A DNA stretch of 64,000 nucleotides from a virus (Duplodnaviria > Caudoviricetes): positions 179,337-243,336 of the IMG/VR virus record IMGVR_UViG_3300021400_000034; one strand, given 5' to 3'. Below are positions 750-64,000 of the stretch, piece by piece. The position numbers and the translations under genes were made by a program. Numbering within the stretch: the first letter of the stretch is position 1; every line of letters begins with the position of its first letter. The notes below the pieces were generated by a model, which did no database searches, was not told the origin of the DNA, and saw nothing but the letters and a program-made list of their open reading frames with translations.

Positions 750-757
750 GATAAATA
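750..757 (+). promoter_or_regulatory. late promoter variant GATAAATA, 4 nt before ATG
   Basis: One mismatch to the T4 gp55 box TATAAATA. Confidence 0.65.
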
Positions 758-761
758 CTTT

Positions 762-1304
762 ATGTCTACCTTTGCGAAGAACTACTATCAGGGAACTTTC
801 GTTCCAAAGCATCCGGAGAAGTGTCTCAACTACAACGGGAAGCTCTATCCCGACAAAGTTCTTCCTATAACTTACCGAAGCTCATGGGAGCAGATCTTGT
901 GCAACTTCTGCGACATGGAAGTGTATGTGCTAGCTTGGGGCTCTGAGGTCGTCGAGATTCCATACTACTCACAGATCGATCAGAAGACACACCGCTACGT
1001 TCTAGACTTTCTCATCATACTGAGGAACAAGCGTGGAGAACTGAAGAAGTGGGCTGTCGAAGTGAAGCCAGACAATCAGGCAGCTTATCTGGACAAGATG
1101 GGCAACGTGATCTACCCGCCAGCGCCGAAGAGAAAGACTCAGAAGGCGATGGCTAGATGGCAAGAGAAGTGCCGGGTCATCAGGAGAAACGCTGAGAAGT
1201 GGGACGCCGCGAAGGAATGGGCGAAGCGCCGTGGGTTCGAATTCTGTGTAAAGACAGAGAAAGAGATCTTCGGACTAGCTGGCGAGCACAGGGGCGATGT
1301 ATAA
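762..1304 (+). CDS. gp4: head completion nuclease (T4 gp4-like, TnsA-type PD-(D/E)XK)
   Basis: YQGxFxPxHPEK, YRSSWE, WxSE, IPY, HRYxxDF and EVKP motifs. Confidence 0.9.
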   Translation: MSTFAKNYYQGTFVPKHPEKCLNYNGKLYPDKVLPITYRSSWEQILCNFCDMEVYVLAWGSEVVEIPYYSQIDQKTHRYVLDFLIILRNKRGELKKWAVEVKPDNQAAYLDKMGNVIYPPAPKRKTQKAMARWQEKCRVIRRNAEKWDAAKEWAKRRGFEFCVKTEKEIFGLAGEHRGDV

Positions 1305-1307
1305 ATA
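1300..1307 (+). promoter_or_regulatory. late promoter TATAAATA, 4 nt before portal ATG
   Basis: Exact T4 late consensus. Confidence 0.8.
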
Positions 1308-1311
1308 ATCT

Positions 1312-2922
1312 ATGAACCTTAACTTTCTAAACTTTCTAAGCAGCAACTTTCTCAAGAACGAAGAGGACGCACAGACCCTTCGTGAGCTTGAGGCTAGAAA
1401 CAACTCAATCGGTCTAGACGAAGACCAGACGAACTGGGCATCCATTGGCGGCGGCTGGGGAATGACTAACGGCGACGCAGTCAACCCAGACCAGCAGTCG
1501 ATCCTGTTCGATTCAGTCTTCGAGAACAAGAAGCAGAGAATCGCTTTCTACCGCAGCATGTACAACTATCCTCTCGTCAAGAAGGCCGTCACTATGATGG
1601 TCGACGAGATGTGCAAGCCTAACGCCGAGAACGAGGTCGCTAGCTTCAACATAAACAAAGCTTTCTCCGCACAGTTCAACTCGACAGAGTATGCGTCACT
1701 CAAGAAGGAGTTCGACTACGTCATGAACTGCGTCATCGGTCAAGACAACGTCCACGACATGCTGAGACGTTGGCTCGTTGACGGCGAACAGTTCGTCGAG
1801 AACTGCGCATCCGACGACGGAAAGAAGCTAGTCGGCATCAAGGTCCTTCCTGCGTACTGCTCTCTAGTCATCTACGAAGAGGGCAAGGCTACTGGCTACA
1901 TTCAGGATCCTAGAATGATCGACCTGAACTCGACTGGCGAGATCAAGAAGTTCACGCTCGACCAGATCTCTTACTCGGACTACGGCCAGTGGGGCGCTAA
2001 CCGAAACGACGTGAGAGGACATCTTGATCCAGCTATCCGTCCGCTCAACCAGCTGAGAGCCATCGAGGACGCCCTCACGGTTACGAGAATCAACAGAGCT
2101 CCTGAGCGCAGACTCTGGAACGTCTACATCGGCAGAGCTAACGACGCTAAGGCTACTGCGATGGTCAACGACATCAAGAACAAGTACCGCAAGACCATGA
2201 CGATCGACCCGATAACGGGAATGATCCAGAGCTCCAAGAACGTTCAGAGCTTCACCGAAGACATCTTCGTCGGAAAGACAGACCAAGGCAACGGCACTAC
2301 GATCGAGCCGATCAAGTCCTCGACCGAGTTCAACGGACAGATGGACGACGTGAAAATGTTCCAGCAGCAAGTCATGGACGCTCTTCTCACACCTTCGATC
2401 CGCTGGGCGGAAGGAGAAGGCGGTGGCGGTCAGTACGCTGTCGCTCCCGAGCAGCAGCTCTCTGAGATCACTTACCAGGAGATGTGCCGCAGACTCGGAC
2501 AGAGATACTGCAACCAGATCATCAAGCACACTTTCATAGTCCACCTCAAGATGTGCGGATTCAAGACTAAGTACTTGGATCCAGCTCTATACAACATCAC
2601 CCTCAACGGCGCAAACAACTTCGAGAAGATCAGGCAGTTAGCCGTATGGGAGAAGATGGGTGGAATCTTGGGTCAGCTCCAGACGATGCTTCCGTCTCTG
2701 GCTAACGCTAAGGCTGACTCCGAAGAAGCTAAGCCGCTCATCTCTCGCCAGTATCTCTACGAGAACATTCTGCACATGAGCGACGCCGACATACTGAAGA
2801 ATCAGCAGTGCATCAAGGAAGAGTGCGAAGCTCTCCTAGAAGATGCAAAGGCTGCACAAGAAGAAGCTGCACCTGAAGACCAGGATGAAGATCTAGAAGG
2901 CGGAGATGACATAGGGTTCTAA
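1312..2922 (+). CDS. gp20: portal protein (T4 gp20-like)
   Basis: RRWLVDG, AIRPLNQLRAIEDAL..RINRAPERR and TEDIF motifs; 536 aa. Confidence 0.95.
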   Translation: MNLNFLNFLSSNFLKNEEDAQTLRELEARNNSIGLDEDQTNWASIGGGWGMTNGDAVNPDQQSILFDSVFENKKQRIAFYRSMYNYPLVKKAVTMMVDEMCKPNAENEVASFNINKAFSAQFNSTEYASLKKEFDYVMNCVIGQDNVHDMLRRWLVDGEQFVENCASDDGKKLVGIKVLPAYCSLVIYEEGKATGYIQDPRMIDLNSTGEIKKFTLDQISYSDYGQWGANRNDVRGHLDPAIRPLNQLRAIEDALTVTRINRAPERRLWNVYIGRANDAKATAMVNDIKNKYRKTMTIDPITGMIQSSKNVQSFTEDIFVGKTDQGNGTTIEPIKSSTEFNGQMDDVKMFQQQVMDALLTPSIRWAEGEGGGGQYAVAPEQQLSEITYQEMCRRLGQRYCNQIIKHTFIVHLKMCGFKTKYLDPALYNITLNGANNFEKIRQLAVWEKMGGILGQLQTMLPSLANAKADSEEAKPLISRQYLYENILHMSDADILKNQQCIKEECEALLEDAKAAQEEAAPEDQDEDLEGGDDIGF

Positions 2923-2944
2923 AGTTTCGTGATAGGAGGTTTCC

Positions 2945-3688: not shown

Positions 3689-3720
3689 ATGTAAAATCTG
3701 CTTAACAGACAGAAAAGAAG

Positions 3721-3749
3721 TTTACAAATGGTGCTAAACGTATTATATT
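3721..3749 (+). promoter_or_regulatory. early-type promoter TTTACA-N17-TATATT overlapping an inverted repeat
   Basis: Motif match; ggtgctaa (3730-3737) / ttagcacc (3762-3769). Confidence 0.7.
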
Positions 3750-3807
3750 GTCTATATGATGTTAGCACCGAGAGTATAAATGAACTATAACTCAAGGAAG
3801 AGCTGAC

Positions 3808-4766: not shown

Positions 4767-4767
4767 T

Positions 4768-6717: not shown

Positions 6718-8574
6718 ATGGATCTTAACTTTGTATTGTTAACAAAATGTTACGATAAGTACGACCTTCAGTACTGGCTGGAGTACCATCACAAGAGATT
6801 CACAGACGCTAGATTCACGATAGTCGACAACGAGTCGATCGTAGACGTCCGCAGAGTCGCTGACAGTGTTCTAGGTCCAGAAAAATACAGATATCTTCGC
6901 ATCAACGGATTTCCAAACCAGAAGAAACTCTATGCTGACTTGATGAACGACCAGTATGGTCACATCTTCTGGCACGGCGAGGTCGTCGCATTCTTCGACG
7001 ATGACGAGTACTTCTACCTGCATGACCCTAACGCTGACGACAAGGACTTCGACTACGAGGAAGTCCTAGAGAAAGCTTTCGAGTACGAGAAGGATTATGA
7101 AGGATGGGACTGGACGAAGTATGACACTCTCTGCATTCCTCACATAAACATGTCGAGCAATCCGCTCTTAGACGACCGCAACACTTCTGCAAGCATGCCG
7201 TTCATTCTCACTAACCGCAGAGATGACAAGACAGCTACGGTCAAGTGCCTAGTCAGATACGATTCGTCCAACGAGTACGAGTGGAAGGTTCAGGAAGGAG
7301 TCGATGAAGCTGGTCACGTCCCGTTCGTCAACGGAAAGAGAAACGCTGCAGTCTTCACGGCATGGTATGACAAGAAGAAAGGACAGGTCGTCGCTCAGTC
7401 GTGGCCGCTAGGAAACACTTCGTTCGCAGAAGTCGACTACAACAGCAACGTCCGTCTCTACCACTATCATCTCAAGTCTAGATGGGACTGGGACCAGAAG
7501 ATCAAGCGCGGCTCTTGCTCTAGCCTGATTCCTTGGTACTCTGACAAGATCGAAGAGAACTGCTTCTACGACCACTACGACATCGTCGACAACAGCATGT
7601 GCGTCGAGTTCAACAGATTCGTCAATCCCGATGTCGTAGAGACGTTCCACGAAGTCTGGAATCCTATTGAAGAGAACGAGACGACTAAGAGACGTGATGC
7701 GCACGATCCGGAGTGGGACAAGATGCCTCACAAGATCAACTACGAGGACATCCGCTTCGCTAAGTCGTTCGAACAGAAGAGAAAGATGGGTGAGTTGTGG
7801 ATCACACAGAACTGCCCGACCATAGACCTTGCATGTCCAGGATCTAACTTAGCGAACCAGATCAACTACTGGAAGCTGAACGACATGAACCCGAAGAAAG
7901 TTCTCTGGGCTGACAAGTGCGCAGTCTACAAAGAGCTCTACGATCTAGGCCTAGAGAACATCAGAATTCCTATCCTGTACGAGAAGTACAAGCCGTCTGA
8001 CAGCGACATCCGAGAGGTGATCGACTGCCTCTGCGTCAGAAACGACTGTATTCTCAAGTGCAACCACGCGTCTGGGTACAACATCAGATTCAACGCTCTC
8101 GAAGGAGTAAACACAGACTTCCTTGTGAAGAAGATCCGCACCTGGCTAGACACTAACTACGCTTACATAGCTGGGTACGAGTGGCACTATGAGCCGATCG
8201 TTCCAGCTATTCTCGTCCAGCCGTCTCTGACACGCAAGGACGTCGTCCCTATCGACTACCAGTTCTACTGCGTAGAAGGTAAGATCGTCGCTATCGAGAT
8301 TCAACGCAAGGTCAGCAAGGTCCTCATCGAGCACCTCGCATTCACCGACGAAGATGGAAACGATCTGGACTGGTGCTTGGGCAGCTGGCCTCTCCAGCAC
8401 GGACTAGGAAAAGAACAGAAGGAAGCCGTCGAAGCGATGAAGCCAGTCGTGAAGAAGATAGCGTCTCAGTTCACGTTCGTTCGAGTCGACCTGTTCTGGA
8501 TCAACAAGCGCATCTACTTCTGCGAGACCACGTTCTGTCCTTCATCCGGAGTTCTCGACTATCAAGAACGGTGA
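6718..8574 (+). CDS. GT-A glycosyltransferase fused to a TupA-like ATP-grasp domain
   Basis: N-terminal WLEYHH, IVDNES, FFDDDEY, HYHLKS; C-terminal ADK, KCNHASG, EWHY, IDYQFYC, FVRVDLF, IYFCETTFCPSSG. Confidence 0.85.
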   Translation: MDLNFVLLTKCYDKYDLQYWLEYHHKRFTDARFTIVDNESIVDVRRVADSVLGPEKYRYLRINGFPNQKKLYADLMNDQYGHIFWHGEVVAFFDDDEYFYLHDPNADDKDFDYEEVLEKAFEYEKDYEGWDWTKYDTLCIPHINMSSNPLLDDRNTSASMPFILTNRRDDKTATVKCLVRYDSSNEYEWKVQEGVDEAGHVPFVNGKRNAAVFTAWYDKKKGQVVAQSWPLGNTSFAEVDYNSNVRLYHYHLKSRWDWDQKIKRGSCSSLIPWYSDKIEENCFYDHYDIVDNSMCVEFNRFVNPDVVETFHEVWNPIEENETTKRRDAHDPEWDKMPHKINYEDIRFAKSFEQKRKMGELWITQNCPTIDLACPGSNLANQINYWKLNDMNPKKVLWADKCAVYKELYDLGLENIRIPILYEKYKPSDSDIREVIDCLCVRNDCILKCNHASGYNIRFNALEGVNTDFLVKKIRTWLDTNYAYIAGYEWHYEPIVPAILVQPSLTRKDVVPIDYQFYCVEGKIVAIEIQRKVSKVLIEHLAFTDEDGNDLDWCLGSWPLQHGLGKEQKEAVEAMKPVVKKIASQFTFVRVDLFWINKRIYFCETTFCPSSGVLDYQER

Positions 8575-8584
8575 TAAATAATGT

Positions 8585-9379
8585 ATGCTAGACAGTAGAT
8601 TCATATACGACGTAGACGCGACGACGCTTCCGCTCTCTAGGGATCTCTTGAAGTCCTGCATAGACAGCAAGCCGATTTTCTCGTTCGTGCTGTGCAAGTA
8701 TGAGAACCTGATTACGACGATCAACACTATCAACCGTTCGCCAGAGATCTCTGGAACGCTGAACGGCAATGTCTTGTTCGACACGATCAACAGCCCGGAG
8801 ACGAGCTATGACTGTGTCATCAAGATCGAGGGTCTGAAGTCTACCGAGGACAACTACCTCAACAATGTGCTACGCTCTAACGAGAACTGCACTTGGACGG
8901 ACTTCAAGACATACTCGAGCATGCTCAGATCCGAGATCAAGGGCATGAAAGAGACCGTGTTCAAGAAGGCTCTCTGGAACAAGGACAACATCGACTCCTG
9001 GTTCGACAGCTCGACGATGCAGCTTCCAGACAGCGTCCGAGATGGACTCGCGAACGACTGGAACGTCTTCAAGGCGACAGTCATCAGATCTAAAGACCTA
9101 GATGCTTTCGTCTCGGCATGCTCAGACGACGCTAAGAACCAGTACATCAGCTTGATCTACAAGAACGCGAAGAATCTGCTCGACCGCTACAAGGTCGAGC
9201 TCATGGCGCACGTCCAGCAGCAGAACAAGAACGACGAGAACGTGACTATCTCTAAGCCCGTCGTATCGAAGATATACATAATGTCAAACAACTACGCAAG
9301 ATGTCAGAAGGAGTGGCCGACTCTCAGAGTCGCTCCGCTGAACAAGAAGAACTTAGAAACACTGGGGCTGTATCTGTGA
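8585..9379 (+). CDS. hypothetical late protein, 264 aa
   Basis: GATAAATA (8573-8580) 4 nt before ATG. Confidence 0.75.
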   Translation: MLDSRFIYDVDATTLPLSRDLLKSCIDSKPIFSFVLCKYENLITTINTINRSPEISGTLNGNVLFDTINSPETSYDCVIKIEGLKSTEDNYLNNVLRSNENCTWTDFKTYSSMLRSEIKGMKETVFKKALWNKDNIDSWFDSSTMQLPDSVRDGLANDWNVFKATVIRSKDLDAFVSACSDDAKNQYISLIYKNAKNLLDRYKVELMAHVQQQNKNDENVTISKPVVSKIYIMSNNYARCQKEWPTLRVAPLNKKNLETLGLYL

Positions 9380-13438: not shown

Positions 13439-13462
13439 CTTTTTCACTGTAAATAACTAAAC

Positions 13463-13786
13463 ATGGGAAGACCACTCTACACCAAGTTCTCGATTTTCTA
13501 TCGAATCAGCAAGAAGGAAGACTTCCTTCGAAAGTTGATTATGAGCCTGTGCAATCGCGAGGACCTGTCAAGCTATGACGTGTTCTACGAGATGTACTCG
13601 AAGACTTTCGACATCATCGCTGACGCGATCATGAAGAAGGACAAGGACCGCATTCTGGCTCTAATCATGAACGAAAACGTAGATGCGAAGCTCAACAGGA
13701 GAATATACGACTATCTAATGTGCGCTAACACTTTCAAGCTCTCTAAGAAGAACCTTCAGGAAGCGCTAGAGCAACAGGAGCTGTAA
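13463..13786 (+). CDS. hypothetical protein, 107 aa
   Basis: TGTAAATA 7 nt upstream. Confidence 0.7.
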   Translation: MGRPLYTKFSIFYRISKKEDFLRKLIMSLCNREDLSSYDVFYEMYSKTFDIIADAIMKKDKDRILALIMNENVDAKLNRRIYDYLMCANTFKLSKKNLQEALEQQEL

Positions 13787-17821: not shown

Positions 17822-17924
17822 CAGTAAAATATCGTTAAAATTTCTTTACATACCTAGACGATGAAAATCTCAAGATAAGCATTTTGATTATATTTTCTCT
17901 TGAAAAGATAAATAACAGGAAACT

Positions 17925-29255: not shown

Positions 29256-29284
29256 CGCAACGTCGTCCAAGCTATAAATACTAT

Positions 29285-32017
29285 ATGAGCTTGGACTACA
29301 CTAAGATAACGCATGAGAGTCTGCTAGCAGAGTGGAACAACCGCGTTCTAGCAGACGAGAGATACAAGAATCTCAGTCACGCCAGCATCTACTCATTCTT
29401 CCAAGAATTCCTAGCTGGAACGATGGATCTGGTGAACTTCTACATTCAGAGAACTGCCGAGGAGAACTACCTCGACACGGCTAAGCTTGACTCTAGCGTG
29501 ATCAAGCTAGCTCACAACCTAGGATATCAGCCGAAGCGTCCGATTCCAGCAGTCGCTGACATCGTTATAGAGCTGAGAGGTCCTCTTCCGAAGACGGTCC
29601 AAGCTGGAGACACTATCTGGCTGAACAACGAAGCTCTAACGTTCTCTTTCAACGGTCACGACTTCATGCTTGACGCTTGCTACTCTTACAAGTTGACCGC
29701 AAAAGACATCGCAGACGGAAAGGATCCGTCTTGGAGAAAGAGGATCAGATACGCTACTGACGGCTACGCTGGTCATCGTGAAGGCTACATCGCTCTAGAC
29801 GGCCAAGTCAACAGCGTATCTGCTGCTAAGCTGTACACGATAGGAATTCTTCAGGGAAAGAAGGTCAAGAAGATCATCGAGCCGCTCGTCTACTCTAATC
29901 AGATCGGCGAGCCTTACCAGATCTACGACATCAACGACGTGAAGTTCTCGAACTACTACGGCGTTCGTGATCCGTTCGCTACGATAGACGGTCAATACTC
30001 CAAGAAGTTCGGCATGTGCCGCGTCGGCATTGGAAGAACAGAGACGGAGGCGATGCTTGAAGATAACCTCTACGACATCGAAGAGCTCGCCGTCGAGATG
30101 AACTCCAAGTTCAAGAGAGAAGAACATCTCACGGAGAAGGAGATCAGCAACCAAGCTCAGATCGTCGCTTTGACCTCTAACTACGACAAGACTGTCCGCT
30201 TGGAGTTCGGAAACGGTGTAAGCACTTCCTGCGGCCTTAAGAGCACAGAAGACATTCTATGTGTCGAGTATCTCATCACTGACGGATCTGACGCTAACTA
30301 TCCAGACGCTGAAGGTTCTGAGCTAAGAGTCGTCGGCAAAGTCTACGCTTCGGGCGAAGGACGCATGACTAATCTGACGAACTACGTCTCGTTCATTCTA
30401 GACTCAGAGATTCATGGAGGTCAGGACTTCGAGTCACGCGACAGCATCAAGAGAAACGCTAGAACGTTCTACGCTTCTAACGGAAAGCTTATCACTCTGC
30501 CAGACTATCAGTCTTGGCTGTTGACTATCACAGACCCAATCATCGTGAAGAACGCTATCGCTTACGGCGAGAACCAGATCGAAGACAAAGGATATCAGCA
30601 CGACGCTGGTATGTCAAACTTCGTTCTCTATACGATCTTCTCAGACGTCTACCGCAAGTATGACGGACGCTATCGTCCTATCAACGTGTTCGATGAAGAC
30701 GAAGATCTCAGCAACACGTTCTTGTACTTCGACTACAACACGTACATCAACCACTTGTCAGACTTCGTCAAGATGATGGCTGAGCCGAAGAACGGATGCA
30801 CAGAGCAGCTGAACGACACTACGACGTTCGGAAAGTGGTGCAAGAGAATTCGAGATGTCGTCGAAGACCGAGTAGCGATCAACACTAAGCTTCTCAGCCT
30901 TCCACCCATCTTCCACTACTATGACGTTGTAGGCGACATTCAGGTCGACCGTCATATCGACATGTCTAAACTCAAAGATGAGCTAGAGAACAGCATCTAC
31001 GAGTGGCTAGCAGAGAACACGTCATTCAATACGAAGATCTTCAAGTCCGACCTGATCGACCGAATTCTTAAGCATCCAGACTGCTTGAGAGCTAACATCG
31101 ACATTAAGGTCTCTGAGCTGATCAAGGGCGAGAGAAAGACATACAGATTCAACAACACTAGCGAAAAAGAGCGCATCACCGTCAACAGAGACATTCTGAT
31201 TATCCCAGTCAGGGACATCAGAGGAAACGACATGAGAGATATTCTGAAAGACATGGTCGGACAGAGCATCGATCTAGAAGTCATTGACGGAACTGGCAAC
31301 ATCCAGTCTTACACAATCAAGAACTACAGCGCAGACGAAGAGCACGTCTATCTGAGAGTCAACGGAAGTCCTACTGTCAACGACGACTACATGTCAGACA
31401 TCATTCTCGAAGAAGATTCCTTCAGCACTCGTGGCAATCTATCTAGCCTGACTGACAAGATGAAGGATCTGATCTACTACTGGATCAGCTCGAAGACTAA
31501 AGTCGAAGGGACAGAAGACAGACCTATCTCGCTACCGTACGAAATCAAGGTCGAGACATCTACAACGAGAGATCAGATCGTCGATAAGATGAATGAGATA
31601 GATACCCAGATTAGAATCAGTCAGAGCAATGCTCGTAGAAGTGATGAGGATCAGGCAAGGCTTGACGCGCTCAATGCCGAGTATCAAAGACTACTAGCAC
31701 TCATCCAAAACTATGACGGAAAGCCAATCACTACCGACAGCACAGTCCGTCTGGAGACGTTCTTGAGAGTCGGCGCTAACTCTACTGACGTCAGCACGAA
31801 CCTAAGCGAAGACTCGTTCTACTACATGCTCATCGACAACGTCAAGAGCGGAAATCTGTCTATGGACACTGTAAAGAGCGCTATGCCTTACATGTACCCT
31901 GCGCTCAAGGCTATCTTCGACGACAACGTTCTAGACGACAACAACAACATCGTATACTTCAGCTCTGAGAGAGAAATCCCAGTGCTGAGACTAAGATTCA
32001 GATACACGTACGCATAA
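29285..32017 (+). CDS. gp6: baseplate wedge subunit (T4 gp6-like)
   Basis: ENYLDTAKLDSSV..LAHNLGYQP, LEFGNG, GGQDFES..IK and ITLPDY motifs; TATAAATA at 29273-29280. Confidence 0.9.
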   Translation: MSLDYTKITHESLLAEWNNRVLADERYKNLSHASIYSFFQEFLAGTMDLVNFYIQRTAEENYLDTAKLDSSVIKLAHNLGYQPKRPIPAVADIVIELRGPLPKTVQAGDTIWLNNEALTFSFNGHDFMLDACYSYKLTAKDIADGKDPSWRKRIRYATDGYAGHREGYIALDGQVNSVSAAKLYTIGILQGKKVKKIIEPLVYSNQIGEPYQIYDINDVKFSNYYGVRDPFATIDGQYSKKFGMCRVGIGRTETEAMLEDNLYDIEELAVEMNSKFKREEHLTEKEISNQAQIVALTSNYDKTVRLEFGNGVSTSCGLKSTEDILCVEYLITDGSDANYPDAEGSELRVVGKVYASGEGRMTNLTNYVSFILDSEIHGGQDFESRDSIKRNARTFYASNGKLITLPDYQSWLLTITDPIIVKNAIAYGENQIEDKGYQHDAGMSNFVLYTIFSDVYRKYDGRYRPINVFDEDEDLSNTFLYFDYNTYINHLSDFVKMMAEPKNGCTEQLNDTTTFGKWCKRIRDVVEDRVAINTKLLSLPPIFHYYDVVGDIQVDRHIDMSKLKDELENSIYEWLAENTSFNTKIFKSDLIDRILKHPDCLRANIDIKVSELIKGERKTYRFNNTSEKERITVNRDILIIPVRDIRGNDMRDILKDMVGQSIDLEVIDGTGNIQSYTIKNYSADEEHVYLRVNGSPTVNDDYMSDIILEEDSFSTRGNLSSLTDKMKDLIYYWISSKTKVEGTEDRPISLPYEIKVETSTTRDQIVDKMNEIDTQIRISQSNARRSDEDQARLDALNAEYQRLLALIQNYDGKPITTDSTVRLETFLRVGANSTDVSTNLSEDSFYYMLIDNVKSGNLSMDTVKSAMPYMYPALKAIFDDNVLDDNNNIVYFSSEREIPVLRLRFRYTYA

Positions 32018-33051
32018 TGGATGAAGATATAGTAATAGAGATGGCTACCAAGAAGCTCGACAACTCGAAAGAGGTGCGAGTGACTAGGTTAAAGAACAAA
32101 GTGATCACGCATCCTGCTGTTCACGAGAGCTGGGGCGATGTAGCTGCTTGGGACGAAGTCGTAGTCGACAAGATCGAAGACGCTGTTCTCTATCCTTACA
32201 TGTATGACGCGACTAGGTTCTTCTACAAGGACAACATCGGAACGAATCTGTCTCTGAACAACGCAGTGAGCCACTTCGTGTTCTCACTAGGAGAGACTGT
32301 CGGTGAGCTCAAGTCTTTCAGTATGAACATGTCCACTAGACTAGACGAAGAAGGAGTCGATCACTGGGACGAGAAGATCTACTACAGCGATACGTTCGCA
32401 TACAATCCCGACACTGGCTTCTACTCGCTCGTGATCTACACTCCAGCGAAGTCCGTGGACTCTCATGATAACCAGATCGGCTACAACGACTCTGTCATCT
32501 CAATAGAAGAGAACATGTCTGCTCCTCCAGAGAGCGCATTCTTGAGAGTGTCTGTTGAATATAGAACGAACTTGCCGCCCTGTCTCATCCAAGGAATCCC
32601 TAAGAAGTTCAATCCTGCCGAGGAGGATCCAGTCTTCCCAGTAGACGCAACTAGGGTAGACATCGGAGTCAACCAGATCCCAGACTACTTCCAGAACTCG
32701 CAGGGCTACACTCAGGACTATCTCTTCACGAACTCCTCGGCTATGTACGTCGCTGACGCGAGCGGATTCATTCCAGAGGAAATCTCAAACGACTACACAT
32801 TCTCTGGTGTGAGCGCTTATCTTGAAGATAGTGATACTACGATGAAGATTCCTGTAGACTTCGAGGTTCTCTCCGACGAGCACATAAAAGAGAAATCTCT
32901 AGATGTCACCGTTGAAGGAACTTCAGCCTCTTACTCGGCTCAGCTAGAGAGGGTCATCTGGAGAACGAAAATCAAGAATAGCATGAATTCGACGAACAAG
33001 AACATCCTGACAATCGAGGCTGCAGTCGAGCCGACAACGGACGAGGTATAA
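32017..33051 (+). CDS. probable virion (baseplate) protein, 344 aa
   Basis: Coupled to gp6 (TAATG); acidic, SA/SG-rich. Confidence 0.6.
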   Translation: MDEDIVIEMATKKLDNSKEVRVTRLKNKVITHPAVHESWGDVAAWDEVVVDKIEDAVLYPYMYDATRFFYKDNIGTNLSLNNAVSHFVFSLGETVGELKSFSMNMSTRLDEEGVDHWDEKIYYSDTFAYNPDTGFYSLVIYTPAKSVDSHDNQIGYNDSVISIEENMSAPPESAFLRVSVEYRTNLPPCLIQGIPKKFNPAEEDPVFPVDATRVDIGVNQIPDYFQNSQGYTQDYLFTNSSAMYVADASGFIPEEISNDYTFSGVSAYLEDSDTTMKIPVDFEVLSDEHIKEKSLDVTVEGTSASYSAQLERVIWRTKIKNSMNSTNKNILTIEAAVEPTTDEV

Positions 33052-33090
33052 ATAAAGAGAATAAACACCTGTGTAGGAGAATTTTGAATT

Positions 33091-33720
33091 ATGGCTGAAA
33101 CATCAAACGACATGAACGTGTTCACTAGCGAGATCGACAACTTCCAAGATCTCGCCAAGAACTTCCTATGGCAAGCCGTGATCATTCCCGAAGAGGGAAC
33201 AGCTCTAGCTCAGCTGTTCAAGGCCCTAGGCGGCACCCGTCAGTTCACTTTACGCTGCAGAATGGCTGCTCTTCCGGAGAGATCCGTCGAATCTGAGCTC
33301 GAGACCCACTGGCAGGGCTCTAAGAAGGTCTTCCCTGGCCGTATGAAGCAAGACGGCGAGATGCAGATGAAGTTCGATGAGTTCCAGGACTGGACGACTT
33401 CTCACATGCTCCAGGCATGGATGAACCTCATGCACAACGCAAACATCAAGCAAGACGGAGGAGATACGGCGGACTACTTCGGTCAGAAGACTGGCGCTGC
33501 TATTTCCAACTACATGACTCAGTACAGCGCAAAGATCCGTCTGACATGCTTCGACTCCAGACTCGAAGAAGGCCAGCCTCACGACTACACCTGCTACTAC
33601 TGCTGGCCGAAGACGATGTCTCAGGTTCAGCTCGACATGGCTGGCTCTGAGAAGATCGAACGTGAAGTCACATTCAGATACTCTACGTTCCAGGAGACGA
33701 ATCCTAAGCTCAGCAAGTAA
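33091..33720 (+). CDS. gp19: tail tube protein (T4 gp19-like)
   Basis: CRMAALP, WQG.KKVFPGR, WPKTMSQVQLD and VTFRY motifs; late box at 33047-33054. Confidence 0.85.
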   Translation: MAETSNDMNVFTSEIDNFQDLAKNFLWQAVIIPEEGTALAQLFKALGGTRQFTLRCRMAALPERSVESELETHWQGSKKVFPGRMKQDGEMQMKFDEFQDWTTSHMLQAWMNLMHNANIKQDGGDTADYFGQKTGAAISNYMTQYSAKIRLTCFDSRLEEGQPHDYTCYYCWPKTMSQVQLDMAGSEKIEREVTFRYSTFQETNPKLSK

Positions 33721-36694: not shown

Positions 36695-38008
36695 CTAAGC
36701 GTAGACCTTAGCTAGGTCTTCCATATTCAGAAGATCAGTGTAGCCGACGTTGTACTCGTGGAGATAGTTGACAATGTCCAAGTCTCTGCTAGTCTTGAAG
36801 CTGCTCATCGCGTAAGCTCCAGAGTAGATGTTCTCTCCGATCAAGATCGCAGAAGACATAGACGGCGGATCTGGAGTCTCATCCATGTTCATGACGTACT
36901 CATCAGTCTCAGACGGCTCTATAGGCAGTCTGACGTCTTTCACGTAGACGCCGTCCCTCTCGAAGTGCAGATCACTGAGCATCTCGTCGATGCTGTAGTA
37001 CGTCGGCTTCACTGGAAGTCCGTTCCATGCGATCTTCAATGCTTCTACCTTCGTCTTAGCGTACTTGAAGATAGGAATCTGCATAGGATCACCTGTCCAG
37101 ACTGCTTTAGCGATCCCGACGATGTGTCCAGTCAGATTCAAGCAGTCTGTCGTAGGCTTCACGTTGCTCGGGTTTACGAACAGCTTGAGTCCGTTCTCGA
37201 TAGCGTTAGCATAGTAGTCTAGCTCGCGAATCTTTCCATTCATGAACGAAGTGCACATCTTCTCGTAGTCTGGCTTGATGATCCAGTCGTTCGCTTTCGT
37301 GCAGTACAGCTTCATCTTCTCTGTGAACGTGCGGTAGTATGATCCAGCAGACTCGACTGATGCGCAAAGCTCGGTCTGGTCTAGAACGCAGTCGAACATC
37401 GCCTTGAGCTGATTGAGCAGATCGAACACACCCCAACGCTTCAGGCTGTCTAGATAGTATCTCAGCCACTTGTAGACCGCATCGACCTTTCTCTGAAGCC
37501 AGCGGAGCCACTTGTTGACTTGCGCCATGAAGTCTTGGAACAGACCAGTGATCGCAGACAGCGTCAAGTCTAGCGAGACGCCAGAGCATATCTGCCTCTT
37601 GAACTCCTTGAAGTCCTGTACTATCTGATACAGCTCTCGCTGAACGTTAGAGTAGCGGTCTTTTCCGTCAAGCTTGAACAGACCTCTCACAGCCTTCGAG
37701 AAGATGGAGTCAGGATTGAGAAGATAGTTAGTGAAGAAGTCGCACTTGAACAGATCCTTACACATCTTAGAGTCTGAGAAGTCTCGAATCCACAATGAGC
37801 TCATGGACTTCATCAGCGATGTTATCGAAGCAGCGATGATCTTCAAGACTGGGTTCAGAACCTCTCTCACAGTCACTAGCGCTAGCTTCACGATTCCGTA
37901 GATCAAGTCAAGAATCTTGTCTGCTGCAGCCTGAGTGACCTCTAGGGCAGTCTTGATTGTCACGAAAGTCTGGTAGATGTAAGTGCAGATGATAGTGGAG
38001 ACGTTCAT
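36695..38008 (-). CDS. helical Cys-containing hypothetical late protein, 437 aa
   Basis: Long ORF; shares TATATATA box with gp14. Confidence 0.75.
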   Translation of the reverse strand: MNVSTIICTYIYQTFVTIKTALEVTQAAADKILDLIYGIVKLALVTVREVLNPVLKIIAASITSLMKSMSSLWIRDFSDSKMCKDLFKCDFFTNYLLNPDSIFSKAVRGLFKLDGKDRYSNVQRELYQIVQDFKEFKRQICSGVSLDLTLSAITGLFQDFMAQVNKWLRWLQRKVDAVYKWLRYYLDSLKRWGVFDLLNQLKAMFDCVLDQTELCASVESAGSYYRTFTEKMKLYCTKANDWIIKPDYEKMCTSFMNGKIRELDYYANAIENGLKLFVNPSNVKPTTDCLNLTGHIVGIAKAVWTGDPMQIPIFKYAKTKVEALKIAWNGLPVKPTYYSIDEMLSDLHFERDGVYVKDVRLPIEPSETDEYVMNMDETPDPPSMSSAILIGENIYSGAYAMSSFKTSRDLDIVNYLHEYNVGYTDLLNMEDLAKVYA

Positions 38009-38015
38009 ATCAGAA

Positions 38016-38023
38016 TATATATA
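38016..38023. promoter_or_regulatory. palindromic TATATATA, candidate bidirectional late promoter
   Basis: Only 19 bp between divergent ATGs at 38008 and 38028. Confidence 0.6.
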
Positions 38024-38027
38024 CTAT

Positions 38028-38852
38028 ATGTACTCAGACTTTCAGGAAGAGTTCAATCGCTTGTGGGGTGATGGCGGATGCACCGTCAGCGGATGGGACT
38101 GGAACAAGCCTATGCCCTACGACAGCACAGACAAAGACAGCTGCTACGCTAACGAAGCAGCATTTCTCTCCTCGCTGACATCTGAAGCGTACAACATGTA
38201 CGGCTTCGAGGTCGACTACTACATCAAGCAGATCTCGACGAAGAGAGATCGTCTGCTCGGCGAGGATCCGCTCGAGAACATCGTCCGCAGGTTCAAGCTG
38301 TCCGTCTACACTGACAGCATTCCCAACCTGCAGAAGCAGTATCAGATCCAAGGCATGCTATATGACGAGGTTTTCGAGATACAGGCGACCATAGCCCACT
38401 TCAGAGAAGCTAGCCAGTATGACTACGAGAGAACCGAGATCAAGTACGAGGAGTACAAGCCGAAGATAGGCGACATCATCTACTTCCAGTATAACGACAA
38501 GTACTACGAAGTGATAAACGTGAAGGAGTTCAAGGACGGCACTGCTTTCCTTGGCACTCCGATCACTTATACGTTCACTCTGAGAATCTGGAAGAACAAC
38601 CACGAAGACGTGGACGTCATGAACCAGAATGACGACGACATGCCTATCGAGGACTTCACTGCCCTGGCTGAGTCGTTCGACATCGAGAACAAGACCTCCG
38701 AAGTGGCTTCTTCTGGAGACATTTTGGCGGTAAACGACTACGTAAAAGGCGAAGATCCGGGACTTCAGCGCTATGTTCCCAAAGACGAGCCTCCTGAGAT
38801 CTGCAAACAGAAGAGAAAATCAGACCCGTTCGACCCGTTTGACGGCTGGTAG
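38028..38852 (+). CDS. gp14: neck/head closure protein (T4 gp14-like)
   Basis: EAYNMYGFEVDYY, DRLLGED, PKIGDIIY..YEV and DPFDGW motifs. Confidence 0.85.
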   Translation: MYSDFQEEFNRLWGDGGCTVSGWDWNKPMPYDSTDKDSCYANEAAFLSSLTSEAYNMYGFEVDYYIKQISTKRDRLLGEDPLENIVRRFKLSVYTDSIPNLQKQYQIQGMLYDEVFEIQATIAHFREASQYDYERTEIKYEEYKPKIGDIIYFQYNDKYYEVINVKEFKDGTAFLGTPITYTFTLRIWKNNHEDVDVMNQNDDDMPIEDFTALAESFDIENKTSEVASSGDILAVNDYVKGEDPGLQRYVPKDEPPEICKQKRKSDPFDPFDGW

Positions 38853-38884: not shown

Positions 38885-39298
38885 ATGAAATGGAAAGAAT
38901 TCCTTAACAAGGTCAACGAAGATCAGAACTACAATCCGGAAGTTTTCGAAGACGAGATCACCGGCGAAGTTCCGCAGACTGGAAACACTGACGTCTCCAC
39001 GCCAGCTCCGGTTCAGCAGAAGTCTGAGATGGGCAACCTCATCGAGAAGTACTTCGGCAAGGGCAACAACGACGCTATCAAGTCTCTCGACGGCTTCTCT
39101 AACGACTTCGTCAACGCTATCACGGATTACGTGAACAATGTCTGGGTCGTTCCTGACGACTTCGTCGGTCGCGATGACGCTCTCGCTCAGTTCAAGAAGA
39201 AGGTGAAGGACATCACTGACGCTCGTGTCAACAAGATCGGCACAGCTATTCACGACCTCGGTGTCCAGCTCCAGAACGCAAAGAACCTAGCTAAGTAA
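38885..39298 (+). CDS. probable head-internal protein (MKWKEFLNKVNE)
   Basis: Late box at 38853-38860; GAGGT SD; CTS-like N-terminus. Confidence 0.7.
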   Translation: MKWKEFLNKVNEDQNYNPEVFEDEITGEVPQTGNTDVSTPAPVQQKSEMGNLIEKYFGKGNNDAIKSLDGFSNDFVNAITDYVNNVWVVPDDFVGRDDALAQFKKKVKDITDARVNKIGTAIHDLGVQLQNAKNLAK

Positions 39299-58566: not shown

Positions 58567-59003
58567 TTGTCCTCCAGATCTGTGAACATGAAGTTGTTGT
58601 CGAGTATAGGATATTTCTTGCTGAGGAAGTCTTTCGAGTGGTCGACCTTTCCGAGAGCGCTTCCTGTGCTCTTCGTGTCTGGCTTGCGAATTCCGATCTT
58701 GCTTCCGAGACGATTGCTCAGCTGTTGTCTCAGCTGGATCTTTCCTTGAATGGCAGCTCTCTTGATCTTTCCAGTTCTCTGACCGAGCTTGCGGTGACGA
58801 CGCTCAGCTCCAGTGATCCTCTTCTCGTGAGGAATGCCGTTCTTGTCGTACTGGATCTTGAAACCTGGCTTATCGGACTTCCACTTCTTTTTCTTCTTCC
58901 CTTTGCGGATGACGTACTTGACATGAAGAGCCTCGTCGAGCTCTTTCTCTACGTCGCCTTCCTGTTCGAGGAACTCTAGAAAACCTAGTCCATTGTCTGC
59001 CAT
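58563..59003 (-). CDS. basic prohead core protein (gp68-like), paralog 1
   Basis: FLEFLE..LDE leader; VIRKGK..PGFKI..RIT.AERR; TATAAATA on minus strand at 59008-59015. Confidence 0.65.
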   Translation of the reverse strand: MADNGLGFLEFLEQEGDVEKELDEALHVKYVIRKGKKKKKWKSDKPGFKIQYDKNGIPHEKRITGAERRHRKLGQRTGKIKRAAIQGKIQLRQQLSNRLGSKIGIRKPDTKSTGSALGKVDHSKDFLSKKYPILDNNFMFTDLEDK

Positions 59004-59010
59004 GTATTAT

Positions 59011-59121
59011 TTATACACGGCTCACTGGCAGTTTCATCGATTCGATGAGCGTCTTCTTCCAGTCGTTCACGTCCTTCTTGCTTATGCGATTTTTAGGCTT
59101 CTTTTGGTCCTTTTTGCTCAT
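59011..59121 (-). CDS. 36-aa basic early peptide (MSKKDQKKPKNRISKKDVNDWKKTLIESMKLPVSRV)
   Basis: Not in ORF track; AGGAG SD and early promoter upstream. Confidence 0.55.
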   Translation of the reverse strand: MSKKDQKKPKNRISKKDVNDWKKTLIESMKLPVSRV

Positions 59122-59152
59122 GATAGCTCCTATTTTAGGTTTCTCATAATCA

Positions 59153-59226: not shown

Positions 59227-61044
59227 ATGATAGACTCATTCAAGTATAGCAACTTAAAGCATCAGAGCACTCATGACAGGGTCGAATACAATCCAGCGTG
59301 GAACGACTATAAAGGTGACGGTCCTTTCCAAGAGAAGCGTGATGAGCTTCTGTCGAAGTATGGATGGGTATCTCCATACGAGTTCTACTACGGTTCTGCG
59401 ACGAACTCAGTCGACACTGACAACAACACGGTCATCGACTTCGACTACATCGAGAGACTCGGTGCAGCAGCAGAAGGAGTAGAAGTTGCAGATAAGGACA
59501 ACGTTCCGAACTACTTCTGGTGCGAGACTCTGTCGAACTGGTGCTACTTCAAGGTGACTGCCGTGGTTCCCAATTTCGAGAAGACTTATACTTGGGTTCC
59601 TACACCTATAAGAGCAATAGCAGCTATTTGCACTATGGGTTGGACCGAGGTCCTTGAGGAGATATCGGTAAATGGATTTTCTTGGGATCTTGTATGGAAA
59701 GCACCAGTTCATATCGTTACTTCATATTTTTCAGGAATAGCTGGATTGGTCTCTTCAGGCATTTCCGCTATTTCTGGAGGACGTGATCTTCAAGAAAGAT
59801 ATGGCGCTTTGACATTCCCTTTTCTGATATACAATGCAGTCACAGCAGCTTCACAAATAAGTACTGCAGACTGGGAAGCAGAAGATCTGATCGAAAAACA
59901 TATACCAACAGATCTAAAAGAAATCTTGATGCCCAGAATGTGTATAAGCTTATACATGTGGAATGGATATAAGCGAACATGGCAGCCTATAAAGCCGCTA
60001 ATAGATCAATTCTCAAGAATGACTAGAAATAATTCGGAATGGGAGCTACAGAAAAATATCGAGTCCGAGTTCGTTGAAAAGTTGCTAAAAGAGGGAGGAG
60101 ACTGGAAAACTCCAGAAGAAAGAGCAAAAATGGCAGACGAGTGGCTCAATAAGCATACAATAAGCGATAGTGGAAAAGAAAAATTCCGGAATGATTGTGC
60201 AACATACTCAGGTGGTGACGAACTTAGGACCGGAGAGCTCATATACCATTTAGCACACGATATGCTCACTGATCCGTGGTATGCTCCGGGTCTGATAGAA
60301 GTTGCTAATTTTGCTACTCTTGAAGCATGGTATCTAGACTGCCATTGTTTTGAGCCGTTCGTCGGTAGAACACCTCTTGCTAAACTTCAATACATAGGTG
60401 TCGACAACGGGGACTTCATCAGCTGGGGTGAGTGGCACTGGATAGAGCAGTATGGATTCTGGATGCCTCTTCCAAAAGATAAAGCTAAGCTTCGCCTATT
60501 CGCAAAGAACACTTTCCAGTTGTTCAACCGTCAGTATTCTTATATAGGACATGATAAAAGAGACCACGTCGGATGGATTCACAAGAATCTAGGTCATCCA
60601 TGCTTCTTCCGAGGAAACGACAATGAGCTGTGGATGTCATACTGGCTTCGTTGGACATCAGGTTATGGATCAGAAGACAGGAGCGGCTGGATGTGGTCTG
60701 AGACGACTAAGATGTCCGGTGTGTATGACATATCGAAGGACGACATCGCTCTGTGGGACGACATCATAAATACTATGTTCGAGAAGCACGATGACTACGG
60801 CTACGACGAGTGGCTAGTCAACGGCGAGTACGGATTGACGTACAAGAAGTTCACAGTCAACGAAGAGCAGCCGAACGAAATTCTGACAGCAGACGACTCG
60901 ACTCTAAATCCAGACAAAGCGCCACTCAACAACAGCATCGAAGAGACACCAGAAAACACGATGATCTTGTCGCTATCTACTGGAACCGTAATATCTCGTG
61001 ATGACGACAACTCGACTATCGACACCGCACAGCGCTGGAAATAA
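59227..61044 (+). CDS. Trp-rich late (probable virion) protein, 605 aa, with a mosaic centre
   Basis: GATAAATA at 59195-59202; A/T-ending codons in the central part. Confidence 0.7.
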   Translation: MIDSFKYSNLKHQSTHDRVEYNPAWNDYKGDGPFQEKRDELLSKYGWVSPYEFYYGSATNSVDTDNNTVIDFDYIERLGAAAEGVEVADKDNVPNYFWCETLSNWCYFKVTAVVPNFEKTYTWVPTPIRAIAAICTMGWTEVLEEISVNGFSWDLVWKAPVHIVTSYFSGIAGLVSSGISAISGGRDLQERYGALTFPFLIYNAVTAASQISTADWEAEDLIEKHIPTDLKEILMPRMCISLYMWNGYKRTWQPIKPLIDQFSRMTRNNSEWELQKNIESEFVEKLLKEGGDWKTPEERAKMADEWLNKHTISDSGKEKFRNDCATYSGGDELRTGELIYHLAHDMLTDPWYAPGLIEVANFATLEAWYLDCHCFEPFVGRTPLAKLQYIGVDNGDFISWGEWHWIEQYGFWMPLPKDKAKLRLFAKNTFQLFNRQYSYIGHDKRDHVGWIHKNLGHPCFFRGNDNELWMSYWLRWTSGYGSEDRSGWMWSETTKMSGVYDISKDDIALWDDIINTMFEKHDDYGYDEWLVNGEYGLTYKKFTVNEEQPNEILTADDSTLNPDKAPLNNSIEETPENTMILSLSTGTVISRDDDNSTIDTAQRWK

Positions 61045-61051
61045 ATAATAC

Positions 61052-64000
61052 ATGAGAGAAATATTCTTCAACAGCTTCAAGGAGAGAATACTCCGAGGAG
61101 AGATCCCGACAGAGTTCGAACTAAGCGGAGCTCCGGTCACCTCGAAGTTCTTTGACGCTTACGACAACTCTGACATAACTATCGAGCAGTACAGAAACCT
61201 TGCTGACTTTGACACTTATCACTCAGGAAATAGCGCGACTATTCCATCTCTCAGCGAGACGCTGTTCGAATACAGCTCTTACGGAGTCGAGTACTCTTCA
61301 TACGAGCCAGACGACATCTCAGAGAAGCCGCTCTTCGTGAACTCAGCCAACTCAGCAGAGTTCTACCGTCTCTACGACTTCGATCTCACTTCAGCTACAA
61401 GGGACTTCACACTAGAGACTATTTCAGATTCCGCTGGCGCAAACTACAACTACGGCTTCTACTATGCGATGAAGAAGTCTCATCTCAACTGGCTAGCGAA
61501 GCGCTGCAACGACGAGTATGACTTCAACAACCAGATCCGCATCGTTCTAGGTGACGACATCGGTAACCTGAATGACCAAGACACGCTAGAGAGCATGTTC
61601 TGTCCGACACCGGACAGACCGTTCCAAGGTGTGTTCGACATGAACGGACACAAGATAGTAAACAAGACCTTCCTATGCAAGAACAACAGCAACGGTCTCT
61701 TCGGCTATTTAGGAAAGAACGGAGTCGTTTGCAACGGCATAGTAGAAGACATCAGGATGGTCTGCCAGAAGCCTATTACATTGGACAAGATCAGAGATGA
61801 CTGTTCTGACGTCGTATGTGGATTCTTGGTCGGAACAAACTACGGAACTGTCCATGACATTGTCACATCTGGTACTATGCAGTTCGACGGATTCTGTCCT
61901 GACGTATATCTCGTCAACAACAAGTACGAATATGTAGAAGGTGACAATACATTCAAGAACAGCGCATACAACTGCTTCTATCCGAACAAGTTCTGTATCA
62001 ACTCGATCTATAATGTTCTTCCATACGCTGGCTACTTCACTGAAGGAGCTGACAGCTACTACAACGACATCGGAATTCCGAGCGTTCTGCACGCTAACAC
62101 GGATATTTCTACCAATTCACTATGCTCGCTCGGCTACTTGATGCACTTTGGATATAGCAATTTCAACGAATACTTCTTAAACTTCAAACACTTCTATGAA
62201 ACGAAGTGTTCTATACACGATGGATTCGACCAGACCTGGGCAAACCCGACAGAGGATATTCCTTTTGTAAGTAATATCGATCGCGCTTCGCTACGTGGAG
62301 CATCGATAGCAAAAGGCGGTAAAGAAAAGCTAGATTGGATCTATGGATATGTTCTTCAAAATATCACAGCCGACGAAAAGATATTGGATCTTGAGCAGTG
62401 GGCAACATTTGCACCAGTAATAAGCACTGAGAGCAACACTACTCTCATTGATGCGATGTCGAAGAACACTATTCAGAATCTAAAGAAGTGGAAGTCGTTC
62501 GACGGATCTAGCGAATACGACATAAAAGATCTGGATAAGAATTATGGTTATTACTATGTCAACAGAGCTTCATATCTCTGCCGTCAGTTGATCGATACAG
62601 TTAAATCGATCACTGCATTTAACAGCGAGAGAACTACACCTCACCAGAGACTGAACCCGAACGCTAGAATTGCTTACTACTGTTCTCCTATCGTTGGAAA
62701 CAACTTTGGAACTATTCACACGATAGACTGCAAACATAGGATAAAGGAATCCAGCGACACGTTTGTCGGATTCATAGGAAATGTATGCGGTAAGCAGAAC
62801 TGCGGAAATATATTACTAGTCAACTCGGTTCTTGACATCGAGCCAAACTCTGGATGCAAGCTTACTCATAAAAACTATATAAAGACTAAAGACTATGCAC
62901 CAAAATACCCAGAAGACTGGGGAAATCTATACAGCGTGTTCGGTTATAACTGGGACTACTGTCAGAGCCCTTACGGAGTAGACGAAGAAGAGTACAGCGC
63001 AAACTCCGCCGAGTGTGTCAGAGTCACTGAGTCTTATTACGACTTCAACGACTTCATATCTTCGGGCGACGACTTTGTTCCGTCTGGCGTTAACCCTGCA
63101 GCATTCAATCGCTACATATTCAACAGATACGAGAACAAAGATTCCGCTTACGGAAACTGCAACTTCGCCGTCAACAATAGCTCTACAGTCGATACGATAG
63201 GATCTGAGATACCAGACGAGATCAGAAGCGCTAAGATGAAGTTCAAGTTCACTGGCGATAATGAGCCATCCGGATTCTACATCGGATTCAACATCCATAG
63301 CGCTACGTACTACGGAAGAATCAAGTTCTACGATCCGTATAATGAAGACAAGAAGTCGAACTTTGAGTGTGAACTAGGAATGGGACAGATAGCGCAACTT
63401 ATCGCTTCCGAGCTTGATTGCGACATTCAGCACTTCGACTTGAACTATCTAGGAGACGCTGCTAAGACGCTAGCATCTTCGGACGATATAGGCGGCCTGA
63501 AAAAGCACGGTGACTACCAGCTGACACTAGAAGATGTTCTTGACTACTCACCAGCATTCAACGGTCCATGTGGAAGGACAGAAAACAATGCAAGAAGCTT
63601 CTGCCGAAATATCATGAACGCAAAGATAGCTATGGGCGGTGAGCTATTAGCAAACTCTGCTGTCTGCACTAGCGGAAAGTTCGCATGGCAAGATTTTCCG
63701 TTTGGCGGAAATAACTTAGGTCCATTCGGAACTACGAACAGCAAAGAAGATTACGACACTAGATACGAAGATGGTCTCTTCGTCATACCTTCAGGCATAG
63801 GCCCAAATCAGACTGATGAAGACTGGAATATATTCGCAGACGATGATGGCAAAAATGGTCCAGACATGTGCTGGTATATGCCTCCAGCTTCTCGTAAATA
63901 TGAAAAAGATGATGGGAAGAATGGCCCAGAAGCATTCAATTCAAGAATCTTGGGTTACTCAGAATCAGGTTCGAACGTCAAGTATTATTTGAACAACTAC
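61052..64000 (+). CDS. large virion/adhesin-like protein with GLUG-like motifs, truncated at the window end (>983 aa)
   Basis: Absent from ORF track (no stop in window); MREIFFNSFKERIL...PFQGVFDMNGHKIVN...GLFGYLGKNGVV; AATAAATA 4 nt upstream. Confidence 0.75.
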   Translation, partial: MREIFFNSFKERILRGEIPTEFELSGAPVTSKFFDAYDNSDITIEQYRNLADFDTYHSGNSATIPSLSETLFEYSSYGVEYSSYEPDDISEKPLFVNSANSAEFYRLYDFDLTSATRDFTLETISDSAGANYNYGFYYAMKKSHLNWLAKRCNDEYDFNNQIRIVLGDDIGNLNDQDTLESMFCPTPDRPFQGVFDMNGHKIVNKTFLCKNNSNGLFGYLGKNGVVCNGIVEDIRMVCQKPITLDKIRDDCSDVVCGFLVGTNYGTVHDIVTSGTMQFDGFCPDVYLVNNKYEYVEGDNTFKNSAYNCFYPNKFCINSIYNVLPYAGYFTEGADSYYNDIGIPSVLHANTDISTNSLCSLGYLMHFGYSNFNEYFLNFKHFYETKCSIHDGFDQTWANPTEDIPFVSNIDRASLRGASIAKGGKEKLDWIYGYVLQNITADEKILDLEQWATFAPVISTESNTTLIDAMSKNTIQNLKKWKSFDGSSEYDIKDLDKNYGYYYVNRASYLCRQLIDTVKSITAFNSERTTPHQRLNPNARIAYYCSPIVGNNFGTIHTIDCKHRIKESSDTFVGFIGNVCGKQNCGNILLVNSVLDIEPNSGCKLTHKNYIKTKDYAPKYPEDWGNLYSVFGYNWDYCQSPYGVDEEEYSANSAECVRVTESYYDFNDFISSGDDFVPSGVNPAAFNRYIFNRYENKDSAYGNCNFAVNNSSTVDTIGSEIPDEIRSAKMKFKFTGDNEPSGFYIGFNIHSATYYGRIKFYDPYNEDKKSNFECELGMGQIAQLIASELDCDIQHFDLNYLGDAAKTLASSDDIGGLKKHGDYQLTLEDVLDYSPAFNGPCGRTENNARSFCRNIMNAKIAMGGELLANSAVCTSGKFAWQDFPFGGNNLGPFGTTNSKEDYDTRYEDGLFVIPSGIGPNQTDEDWNIFADDDGKNGPDMCWYMPPASRKYEKDDGKNGPEAFNSRILGYSESGSNVKYYLNNY

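Follow-up and report, generated by a model that had tools for sequence, protein, structure and literature searches.

Late-promoter boxes a few bases from the start codon point to a probable class of leaderless late mRNAs in a large tailed phage

In the tailed-phage record IMGVR_UViG_3300021400_000034 (Duplodnaviria; Caudoviricetes), we studied a group of genes whose ATG follows a box resembling the T4 late promoter after only a few nucleotides (nt). The stretch analyzed, referred to below as the window, is the final 64 kb of a phage genome that measures 243,336 bp, carries terminal repeats and has a G+C content of 48.6%. On the evidence of spacing, start codons and genomic context, we consider it probable, though well short of assured, that these genes form a class of late mRNAs that carry leaders of 0–3 nt and are translated without a Shine-Dalgarno (SD) sequence. 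A near-identity DNA search of GenBank phages gave no match, and the portal protein is only ~25% identical to the portals of KVP40-type phages.

The arrangement ATAWATA, four nucleotides of any kind and ATG (hereafter N4, with other spacings named accordingly) occurs seven times in the window, at positions 751, 1301, 8574, 29274, 38017, 59014 (minus strand) and 61041, against 0.05 occurrences expected; none of 100 shuffled sequences reached seven. These are the sites singled out by the original prediction, whose coordinates and spacers (cttt, atct, atgt, ctat, ctat, atac and atac) all proved accurate. The 8-mer TATAAATA is itself strongly enriched, with 16 copies in the window (0.4 expected) and 48 in the genome (2.1 expected), corresponding to a 23-fold over-representation.

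Box-to-start distances were counted from the end of the box to an ATG opening an open reading frame (ORF) of at least 60 amino acids (aa). Genome-wide, the 78 ATAAATA boxes gave a spike of 12 sites at 4 nt (13 with TATATATA) and 0–4 sites at each other offset; minor counts were seen at 2, 5 and 6 nt, and the interval from 7 to 13 nt held just two ATGs, at 10 and 13 nt. The second mode was broad, extending from 17 to ~36 nt, and consisted of A-rich leaders with a clear GGAG or AGGA. The same two-mode distribution was found in the four relatives that we fetched in full, namely G001 (248 kb, 98% complete), G002, G003 and G004, so that the genome-wide peak at 4 nt foreseen by the original prediction is present both here and in its kin.

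The five genomes together contain 286 boxes, the variants GATAAATA, AATAAATA and TGTAAATA included. In this pool, where orthologous sites are counted repeatedly and are not independent events, ATGs that come first in their ORF were distributed as 24 at 4 nt, 2 at 5 nt, 10 at 6 nt, 5 at 7 nt and 1 at 8 nt, with totals of 43 at 2–8 nt, 8 at 9–15 nt and 108 at 16–45 nt. The near-empty zone of 9–15 nt is what a constraint imposed by the RNA 5′ end predicts, because a leader of 5–11 nt cannot hold an SD. The short class spans 4–8 nt, with 4 nt as its mode and not its rule; the original prediction had described a class at exactly 4 nt, of which the mode stands, while the fixed spacing is contradicted by the members at 5–8 nt and by orthologues of variable spacing. 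As a side observation, TGTAAATA is a frequent late-box variant in this clade (46 copies in the five genomes), and censuses based on ATAAATA therefore undercount promoters.

The two classes also differ in what surrounds the start codon. Short spacers (4–8 nt) are A/T-rich and have no SD between box and ATG, and the energy of the duplex with the anti-SD lies above –5 kcal/mol at 15 of 18 short-class sites, the three exceptions pairing upstream of the box. Conversely, SDs are present in the longer leaders of other late genes, as had been noted for the tube (gp19) gene and for those at 38885, 42789 and 43290. Pooled short-class starts comprised 43 ATG and 1 GTG, versus ~10% non-ATG starts in the leadered class, a weak contrast given that the sites are not independent. 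This bias is in line with the preference of leaderless mRNAs for AUG (PMC9031893).

With the exception of that of gp14, the seven ATGs in the window each open a long ORF (146 to >983 aa), no earlier start codon being present in frame. In gp14 (38028) three in-frame start codons lie 33–45 nt upstream, and three orthologues align from the 38028 ATG. By tblastn against the relatives, thirteen short-class proteins align from residue 1 at the conserved ATG: those starting at genome positions 13611, 21807, 27266, 29567, 32602 and 49017, and in the window gp4, portal, 8585, gp6, the 38008/38028 pair and 61052. An alternative start with a good SD no more than 40 codons downstream was found in one short-class gene only (49017, at +114 nt), and the orthologues of this gene align from the first ATG. 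Since orthologues, SD-led alleles among them, align from the same ATG, the short-class ATGs are real starts, as far as comparison can show; the possibility raised originally, that true starts lie downstream behind an SD, finds no support in these conserved N-termini.

Comparison of the relatives further revealed that single genes pass from one class to the other. Portal orthologues share their ATG and N-terminus (MNLNFLNF); this start stands behind TATAAATA at N4 here and in L004/L005, and behind a box and a 20–21-nt SD leader in G001, G002, G004, L001, L073 and L075. (L073, JAEEGH010000336.1, measures 297,951 bp, ~50 kb more than this genome, an excess that might reflect a larger relative, a concatemer or a misassembly.) Likewise, gp6 has N4 spacing here and in L016, a 17-nt leader with GAGGT in G001 and G002, and a 32-nt leader in G003. 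Toggling between short spacer and SD leader was also seen at 29567, 32602, 24245 and 59003, the relatives of the last having SD-bearing leaders instead. A short spacer (4–7 nt) is conserved throughout the clade at gp4, 8585, 61052, the wedge gene 13611, 27266, 21807, 49017 and the minus-strand gene 38008.

The surroundings of 22 short-class sites were surveyed in this genome. Four of them (genome 13611, 21807 and 32602; window 762) lie directly behind strong terminators made of a hairpin and a U-run, with folds of –18 to –24 kcal/mol, and five have divergent neighbors, including the gp14 gene and the 437-aa gene. At these nine sites the box is the only evident source of mRNA, and no room is left for an SD.

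By sequence and context, the boxes can be regarded as putative T4-type late promoters. The region upstream of them is nearly featureless, with a relative entropy of at most 0.1 bit from –40 to –2 and 0.3 bit at –1, and holds no conserved –35 element. Downstream, purines occupy the fifth base after the box in most leadered promoters (40/44, 44/52 and 51/62), as compared to ~60% for boxes without an ORF; in the leadered promoters of this genome C is never found there (0%) and G reaches 41%, versus 7–18% at neighboring positions. A +1 at this base is what the usual sigma-70 geometry would give, with TATAAA at –12 to –7, and at N4 the base coincides with the A of ATG. Moreover, a pyrimidine directly precedes the ATG at 20 of 21 short-class sites and in 58 of 141 SD-led genes (Fisher p = 1.6e-6), which fits the preference of RNA polymerase for starting at a purine (+1) that follows a pyrimidine (–1). 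Members with N6 or N7 spacing combine both features, the purine in fifth place and the pyrimidine preceding the ATG (RU-AUG or RNY-AUG); they may have 2–3-nt leaders, two start sites or a shifted one, or a short-leader motif. The scarcity of N5 (2 sites, versus 24 for N4 and 10 for N6) fits a collision of the two constraints at one base.

The separate leaderless class put forward by the original prediction is thus favored by the spacing spike, the starts, the context and these +1-like signatures, its fixed spacing being the part that fell away; the position of +1 is one that we infer. Sequences downstream of T4 late promoters offered no usable +1 signature for calibration, and a single metagenome scan for transcript-derived contigs ending at the predicted start returned only long DNA contigs.

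Several observations weigh against an mRNA that begins at the start codon. The T4 late box spans –13 to –6, with T at –13 (PMC2988020), and by this numbering +1 would be the sixth base after the box, which at N4 is the U of AUG; a shift of 1 nt from T4 has to be assumed, and the clade's own leadered promoters appear to support it. Spacing varies among orthologues (4, 6, 7 or 8 nt), so that many RNAs would carry 1–3 extra bases or else the start site would have to move. The orthologue of gp4 in G001 (147100 region) has a GTG at N4 behind TGTAAATA, the sole non-ATG start of the short class; leaderless initiation in E. coli makes poor use of GTG, and this start is awkward for a strictly leaderless reading. 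An SD-like run occurs upstream of the box, 12–13 nt from the ATG, at three N4 sites. Ten of the 22 sites are tight same-strand junctions, where the upstream gene ends 7–29 nt before the ATG and read-through RNA combined with translational coupling could supply the protein. Folding energies at the 5′ end did not differ between short-class and SD-led genes (p = 0.64). Finally, the late sigma factor that would read the box is only weakly recognizable and not securely identified. No match in the genome was obtained with T4 gp55, a KVP40 gp33 fragment or PHROG 234; the candidate listed in Table 1 showed a weak pairwise N-terminal match to T4 gp55 (E 0.008), reached a probability of only 6% in hhalign, led to Sigma70_r2 clusters in the Atlas, and yielded an AlphaFold2 model too poor for use (predicted local distance difference test score, pLDDT, 43).

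The tight junctions bring up the most serious alternative, in which a polycistronic late RNA spans the site, ribosomes reinitiate or scan as 70S particles from the upstream stop, and the box mainly feeds SD-led cistrons further downstream. The stop codon in fact falls inside the box or overlaps it at portal, 8585 and 61052, and scanning by 70S ribosomes is a recognized route of initiation, one that initiation factor 1 (IF-1), a protein this phage encodes, stimulates (PMC9031893). The mechanism is nonetheless inapplicable to the four sites preceded by a terminator and to the five divergent ones. Nor does it require a fixed distance from box to ATG, or predict the empty zone at 9–15 nt and the base preferences in fifth place (purine) and ahead of the ATG (pyrimidine). 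As a general explanation we find coupling rather unlikely, yet for the ten tight junctions it is a serious rival, and it may well operate alongside leaderless initiation.

Two other explanations fare worse. In Gram-negative bacteria, AU-rich leaders are able to promote initiation without an SD, and the box, which is A/U-rich and directly 5′ of the start codon, might act within a longer RNA from unrecognized upstream promoters as an unstructured standby or S1-binding site replacing the SD; terminators may leak. However, the same 8-mer stands 16–45 nt before more than 100 SD-led genes, where a role as enhancer is impossible; it is specific in strand and position like a promoter, without a –35 element, and the +1-like signature is common to both classes. 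We therefore judge this explanation improbable. Even less credible, and already largely refuted, is the idea that the pattern is due to chance or to mis-set starts. Gene starts were indeed set by ORF logic alone with a crude gene caller, but seven sites were found where 0.05 were expected, and N-termini begin at the same ATG in up to seven relatives, SD-led alleles included. We rejected it on the strength of the shuffles, the orthologue alignments and the near-absence of SD-led starts downstream.

Leaderless initiation, the reading we prefer, could operate as follows. The late promoter would be an 8-bp TATAAATA-like element without a –35 element, placed in about one-third of the late transcription units of the clade at 4 nt (less often 5–8 nt) from the ATG. 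RNA polymerase would start at the A of AUG or 1–3 nt before it, yielding an mRNA with no room for an SD. Translation would then probably be leaderless, with a 70S ribosome, or a 30S subunit with IF2 and fMet-tRNA, binding the 5′-terminal AUG. The output of this route would usually be lower than that of the abundant capsid, scaffold and tube genes with their strong SDs, and a gene could switch class through an indel of ~17 nt that adds or removes an SD-bearing leader.

The distribution of the two classes among virion genes is compatible with such a scheme. Strong SDs are found at the major capsid, scaffold and tube genes; the short class includes portal, gp4, gp14, gp6 and wedge proteins, and also a glycosyltransferase-like gene and a homing endonuclease. 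This pattern fits a lower-yield channel for low-copy parts, in keeping with the proposal that start-site placement might set stoichiometry.

The phage may also contribute to initiation itself. Its IF-1 gene lies directly upstream of the candidate late sigma gene, behind a late-type box at 17907, and copies in G001 and G002 are 78–79% identical. In addition, a tRNA-Met gene at L013:16593-16665 (genome 136593-136665) bears hallmarks of a bacterial initiator: no 1:72 pair (C1 opposite U72), A11:U24, and a GGG/CCC anticodon stem (three G:C pairs). A tRNA-Met of G001, at 148453-148538, has the same GGG/CCC anticodon stem. A review (PMC9031893) credits IF1, and fMet-tRNA above all, with stimulating the translation of leaderless mRNAs. 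Phage IF-1 is a possible accessory to leaderless initiation, and the link of IF-1 and the initiator tRNA to the short class is suggestive only. Homologues of IF-1 among GenBank phages occur in Lak megaphages and in some Bacteroides and other large phages, several of the matches being short, unannotated records.

A more ambitious picture is a two-tier late program, in which low-copy virion parts and some accessory genes ride on leaderless mRNAs, late-expressed IF-1 and the initiator-type tRNA-Met raise the capacity for 70S-type initiation at a 5′ AUG, and lineages tune individual genes by ~17-nt indels that switch them between the leaderless and the SD-led state. We offer this only as a speculation and doubt that it holds in full.

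Table 1. Features of the short class, leadered comparators and related genes (window coordinates)
Feature	Position	Strand	Remarks
Intrinsic terminator directly before the gp4 late box	709..749	+	11-bp stem, then U-run
GATAAATA+cttt+ATG, gp4-like head-completion gene (762-1304)	750..764	+	PHROG 218 'head closure', 1.9e-35; family scan
TATAAATA+atct+ATG, portal gene (1312-2922)	1300..1314	+	PHROG 213 portal, 2.9e-68; family scan
GATAAATA+atgt+ATG, 264-aa gene	8573..8587	+	No family match; upstream TGA stop overlaps box
TGTAAATA+actaaac (7 nt)+ATG, 107-aa ORF in head-gene cluster	13448..13465	+	Extra member
Scaffold	14625		Family scan
Gp23 major capsid	15674		Family scan
Phage-encoded IF-1, 73 aa	19124..19345	+	Pfam PF01176, 5e-18, 64.9 bits (cut-off 30.2)
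Candidate gp55-type late sigma, 190 aa	19367..19939	+	Weak identification
TATAAATA+ctat+ATG, gp6-like baseplate wedge gene (29285-32017)	29273..29287	+	PHROG 219; family scan
TATAAATA+36-nt leader with AGGAG+ATG, tail tube gene (ATG 33091)	33047..33093	+	Leadered comparator; family scan
Palindromic TATATATA (38016-38023) between divergent starts 19 nt apart	38006..38030	both
gp14-like neck gene, N4	ATG 38028	+	PHROG 679 'head closure Hc2'; family scan
437-aa gene sharing TATATATA, N7	ATG 38008	–	Extra short-class member
TATAAATA+atac+ATG, 146-aa gene	59001..59015	–	Divergent neighbor; no family match
AATAAATA+atac+ATG, ORF >983 aa running off the window	61040..61054	+	Upstream TAA stop inside box

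Some of the sites in Table 1 can be followed through the relatives. Upstream of gp4, the RNA fold of 705–749 has an energy of –20.8 kcal/mol (z –6.3), and the succession of terminator, box, N4 and ATG was found again in six or seven relatives; N4 spacing of this gene is retained in G001, G002, G004, L001, L004/5, L073 and L075, mostly with TGTAAATA as the box. The box of portal contains the TAA stop of gp4. The 8585 gene keeps N4 in G001, G002 and L002, and has N7 in L004/5. The divergent layout of 38008 and 38028 is preserved in G001–G003, with spacers of 7–10 nt and no SD in the gap. The minus-strand gene at 59003 had been labeled gp68-like, a designation that its lack of any family match leaves without support.

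N4 spacing of the 61052 gene is kept in G001, G002, G003 and L018 (spacer gaat), always with TGTAAATA. Its ORF runs past the end of the genome record, and since an open frame of 819 aa begins at genome position 57, the gene may extend through the terminal repeat. Elsewhere in the genome, the homing-endonuclease gene (L013:15960-16586, genome 135960; PHROG 314, 3e-41) sits in the tRNA-gene region and has its own TATAAATA-N5-ATG, and the tRNA region of G001 contains several N4 sites (144318, 146917 and 148412). The 520-aa protein encoded at genome position 24245 gave nothing in the scan of relatives.

Should the 5′ ends be confirmed, this phage would present a T4-type late system with a discrete leaderless class beside an SD-led class in one and the same virus. 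The portal and gp6 genes, as natural paired alleles from leaderless and SD-led lineages, would be a ready-made comparison of initiation yields, and they also bear on whether phage IF-1 and the initiator tRNA shift the balance between leaderless and SD-led translation. In practical terms, short-class starts in this clade will be missed or wrongly placed by gene callers that demand an SD.

One known counterpart is the set of T4 late promoters served by gp55, gp33 and gp45, which have the same 8-mer TATAAATA, no upstream element, occurrence on both strands and boxes before structural genes. The differences lie in the N4 class and in the late sigma, which is here only weakly recognizable. T4 has no ATAAATA-N4-ATG at all, Syn9 has none, and KVP40 has one at N4; a cluster of four KVP40 hits at N7 was discarded, as none of the three ATGs checked is an annotated start. 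The short class thus looks clade-specific among the genomes sampled, and in the literature we did not find a leaderless class described for T4-type late promoters.

Among other phages, phiKZ has no leaderless transcripts and AR9 has 5′ untranslated regions of 26–491 nt. The cI mRNA that lambda makes from PRM, the classic leaderless mRNA of a phage, does carry a 5′-terminal AUG, and IF2 and fMet-tRNA stimulate its translation (PMC9031893), but it represents one regulatory gene in a temperate phage and not, as here, a class of late structural genes. In cellular genomes, leaderless genes occur in Actinobacteria, and in Deinococcus-Thermus many ORFs directly follow a –10-type element, which stands at a fixed short distance from the start codon, with no SD and with a spacing that is critical for expression (PMC12340547; PMC4633059); those promoters are of the cellular sigma-A type, whereas here the element is an 8-bp T4-like late box without a –35 element. 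Most similar in promoter placement are the large, lytic Thermus phages phiYS40 and Lalka27a, in which most transcripts are leaderless and promoters are placed such that the RNA begins with the A or G of the start codon (bioRxiv 10.64898/2026.04.20.719267). In these phages, however, the leaderless majority extends over all temporal classes, as is the norm in the host phylum, and the promoters are host-type –10 elements or TAGGGT, whereas in the present phage the arrangement concerns only about one-third of T4-type late promoters, beside an SD-using majority of ~65–80% of the genes.

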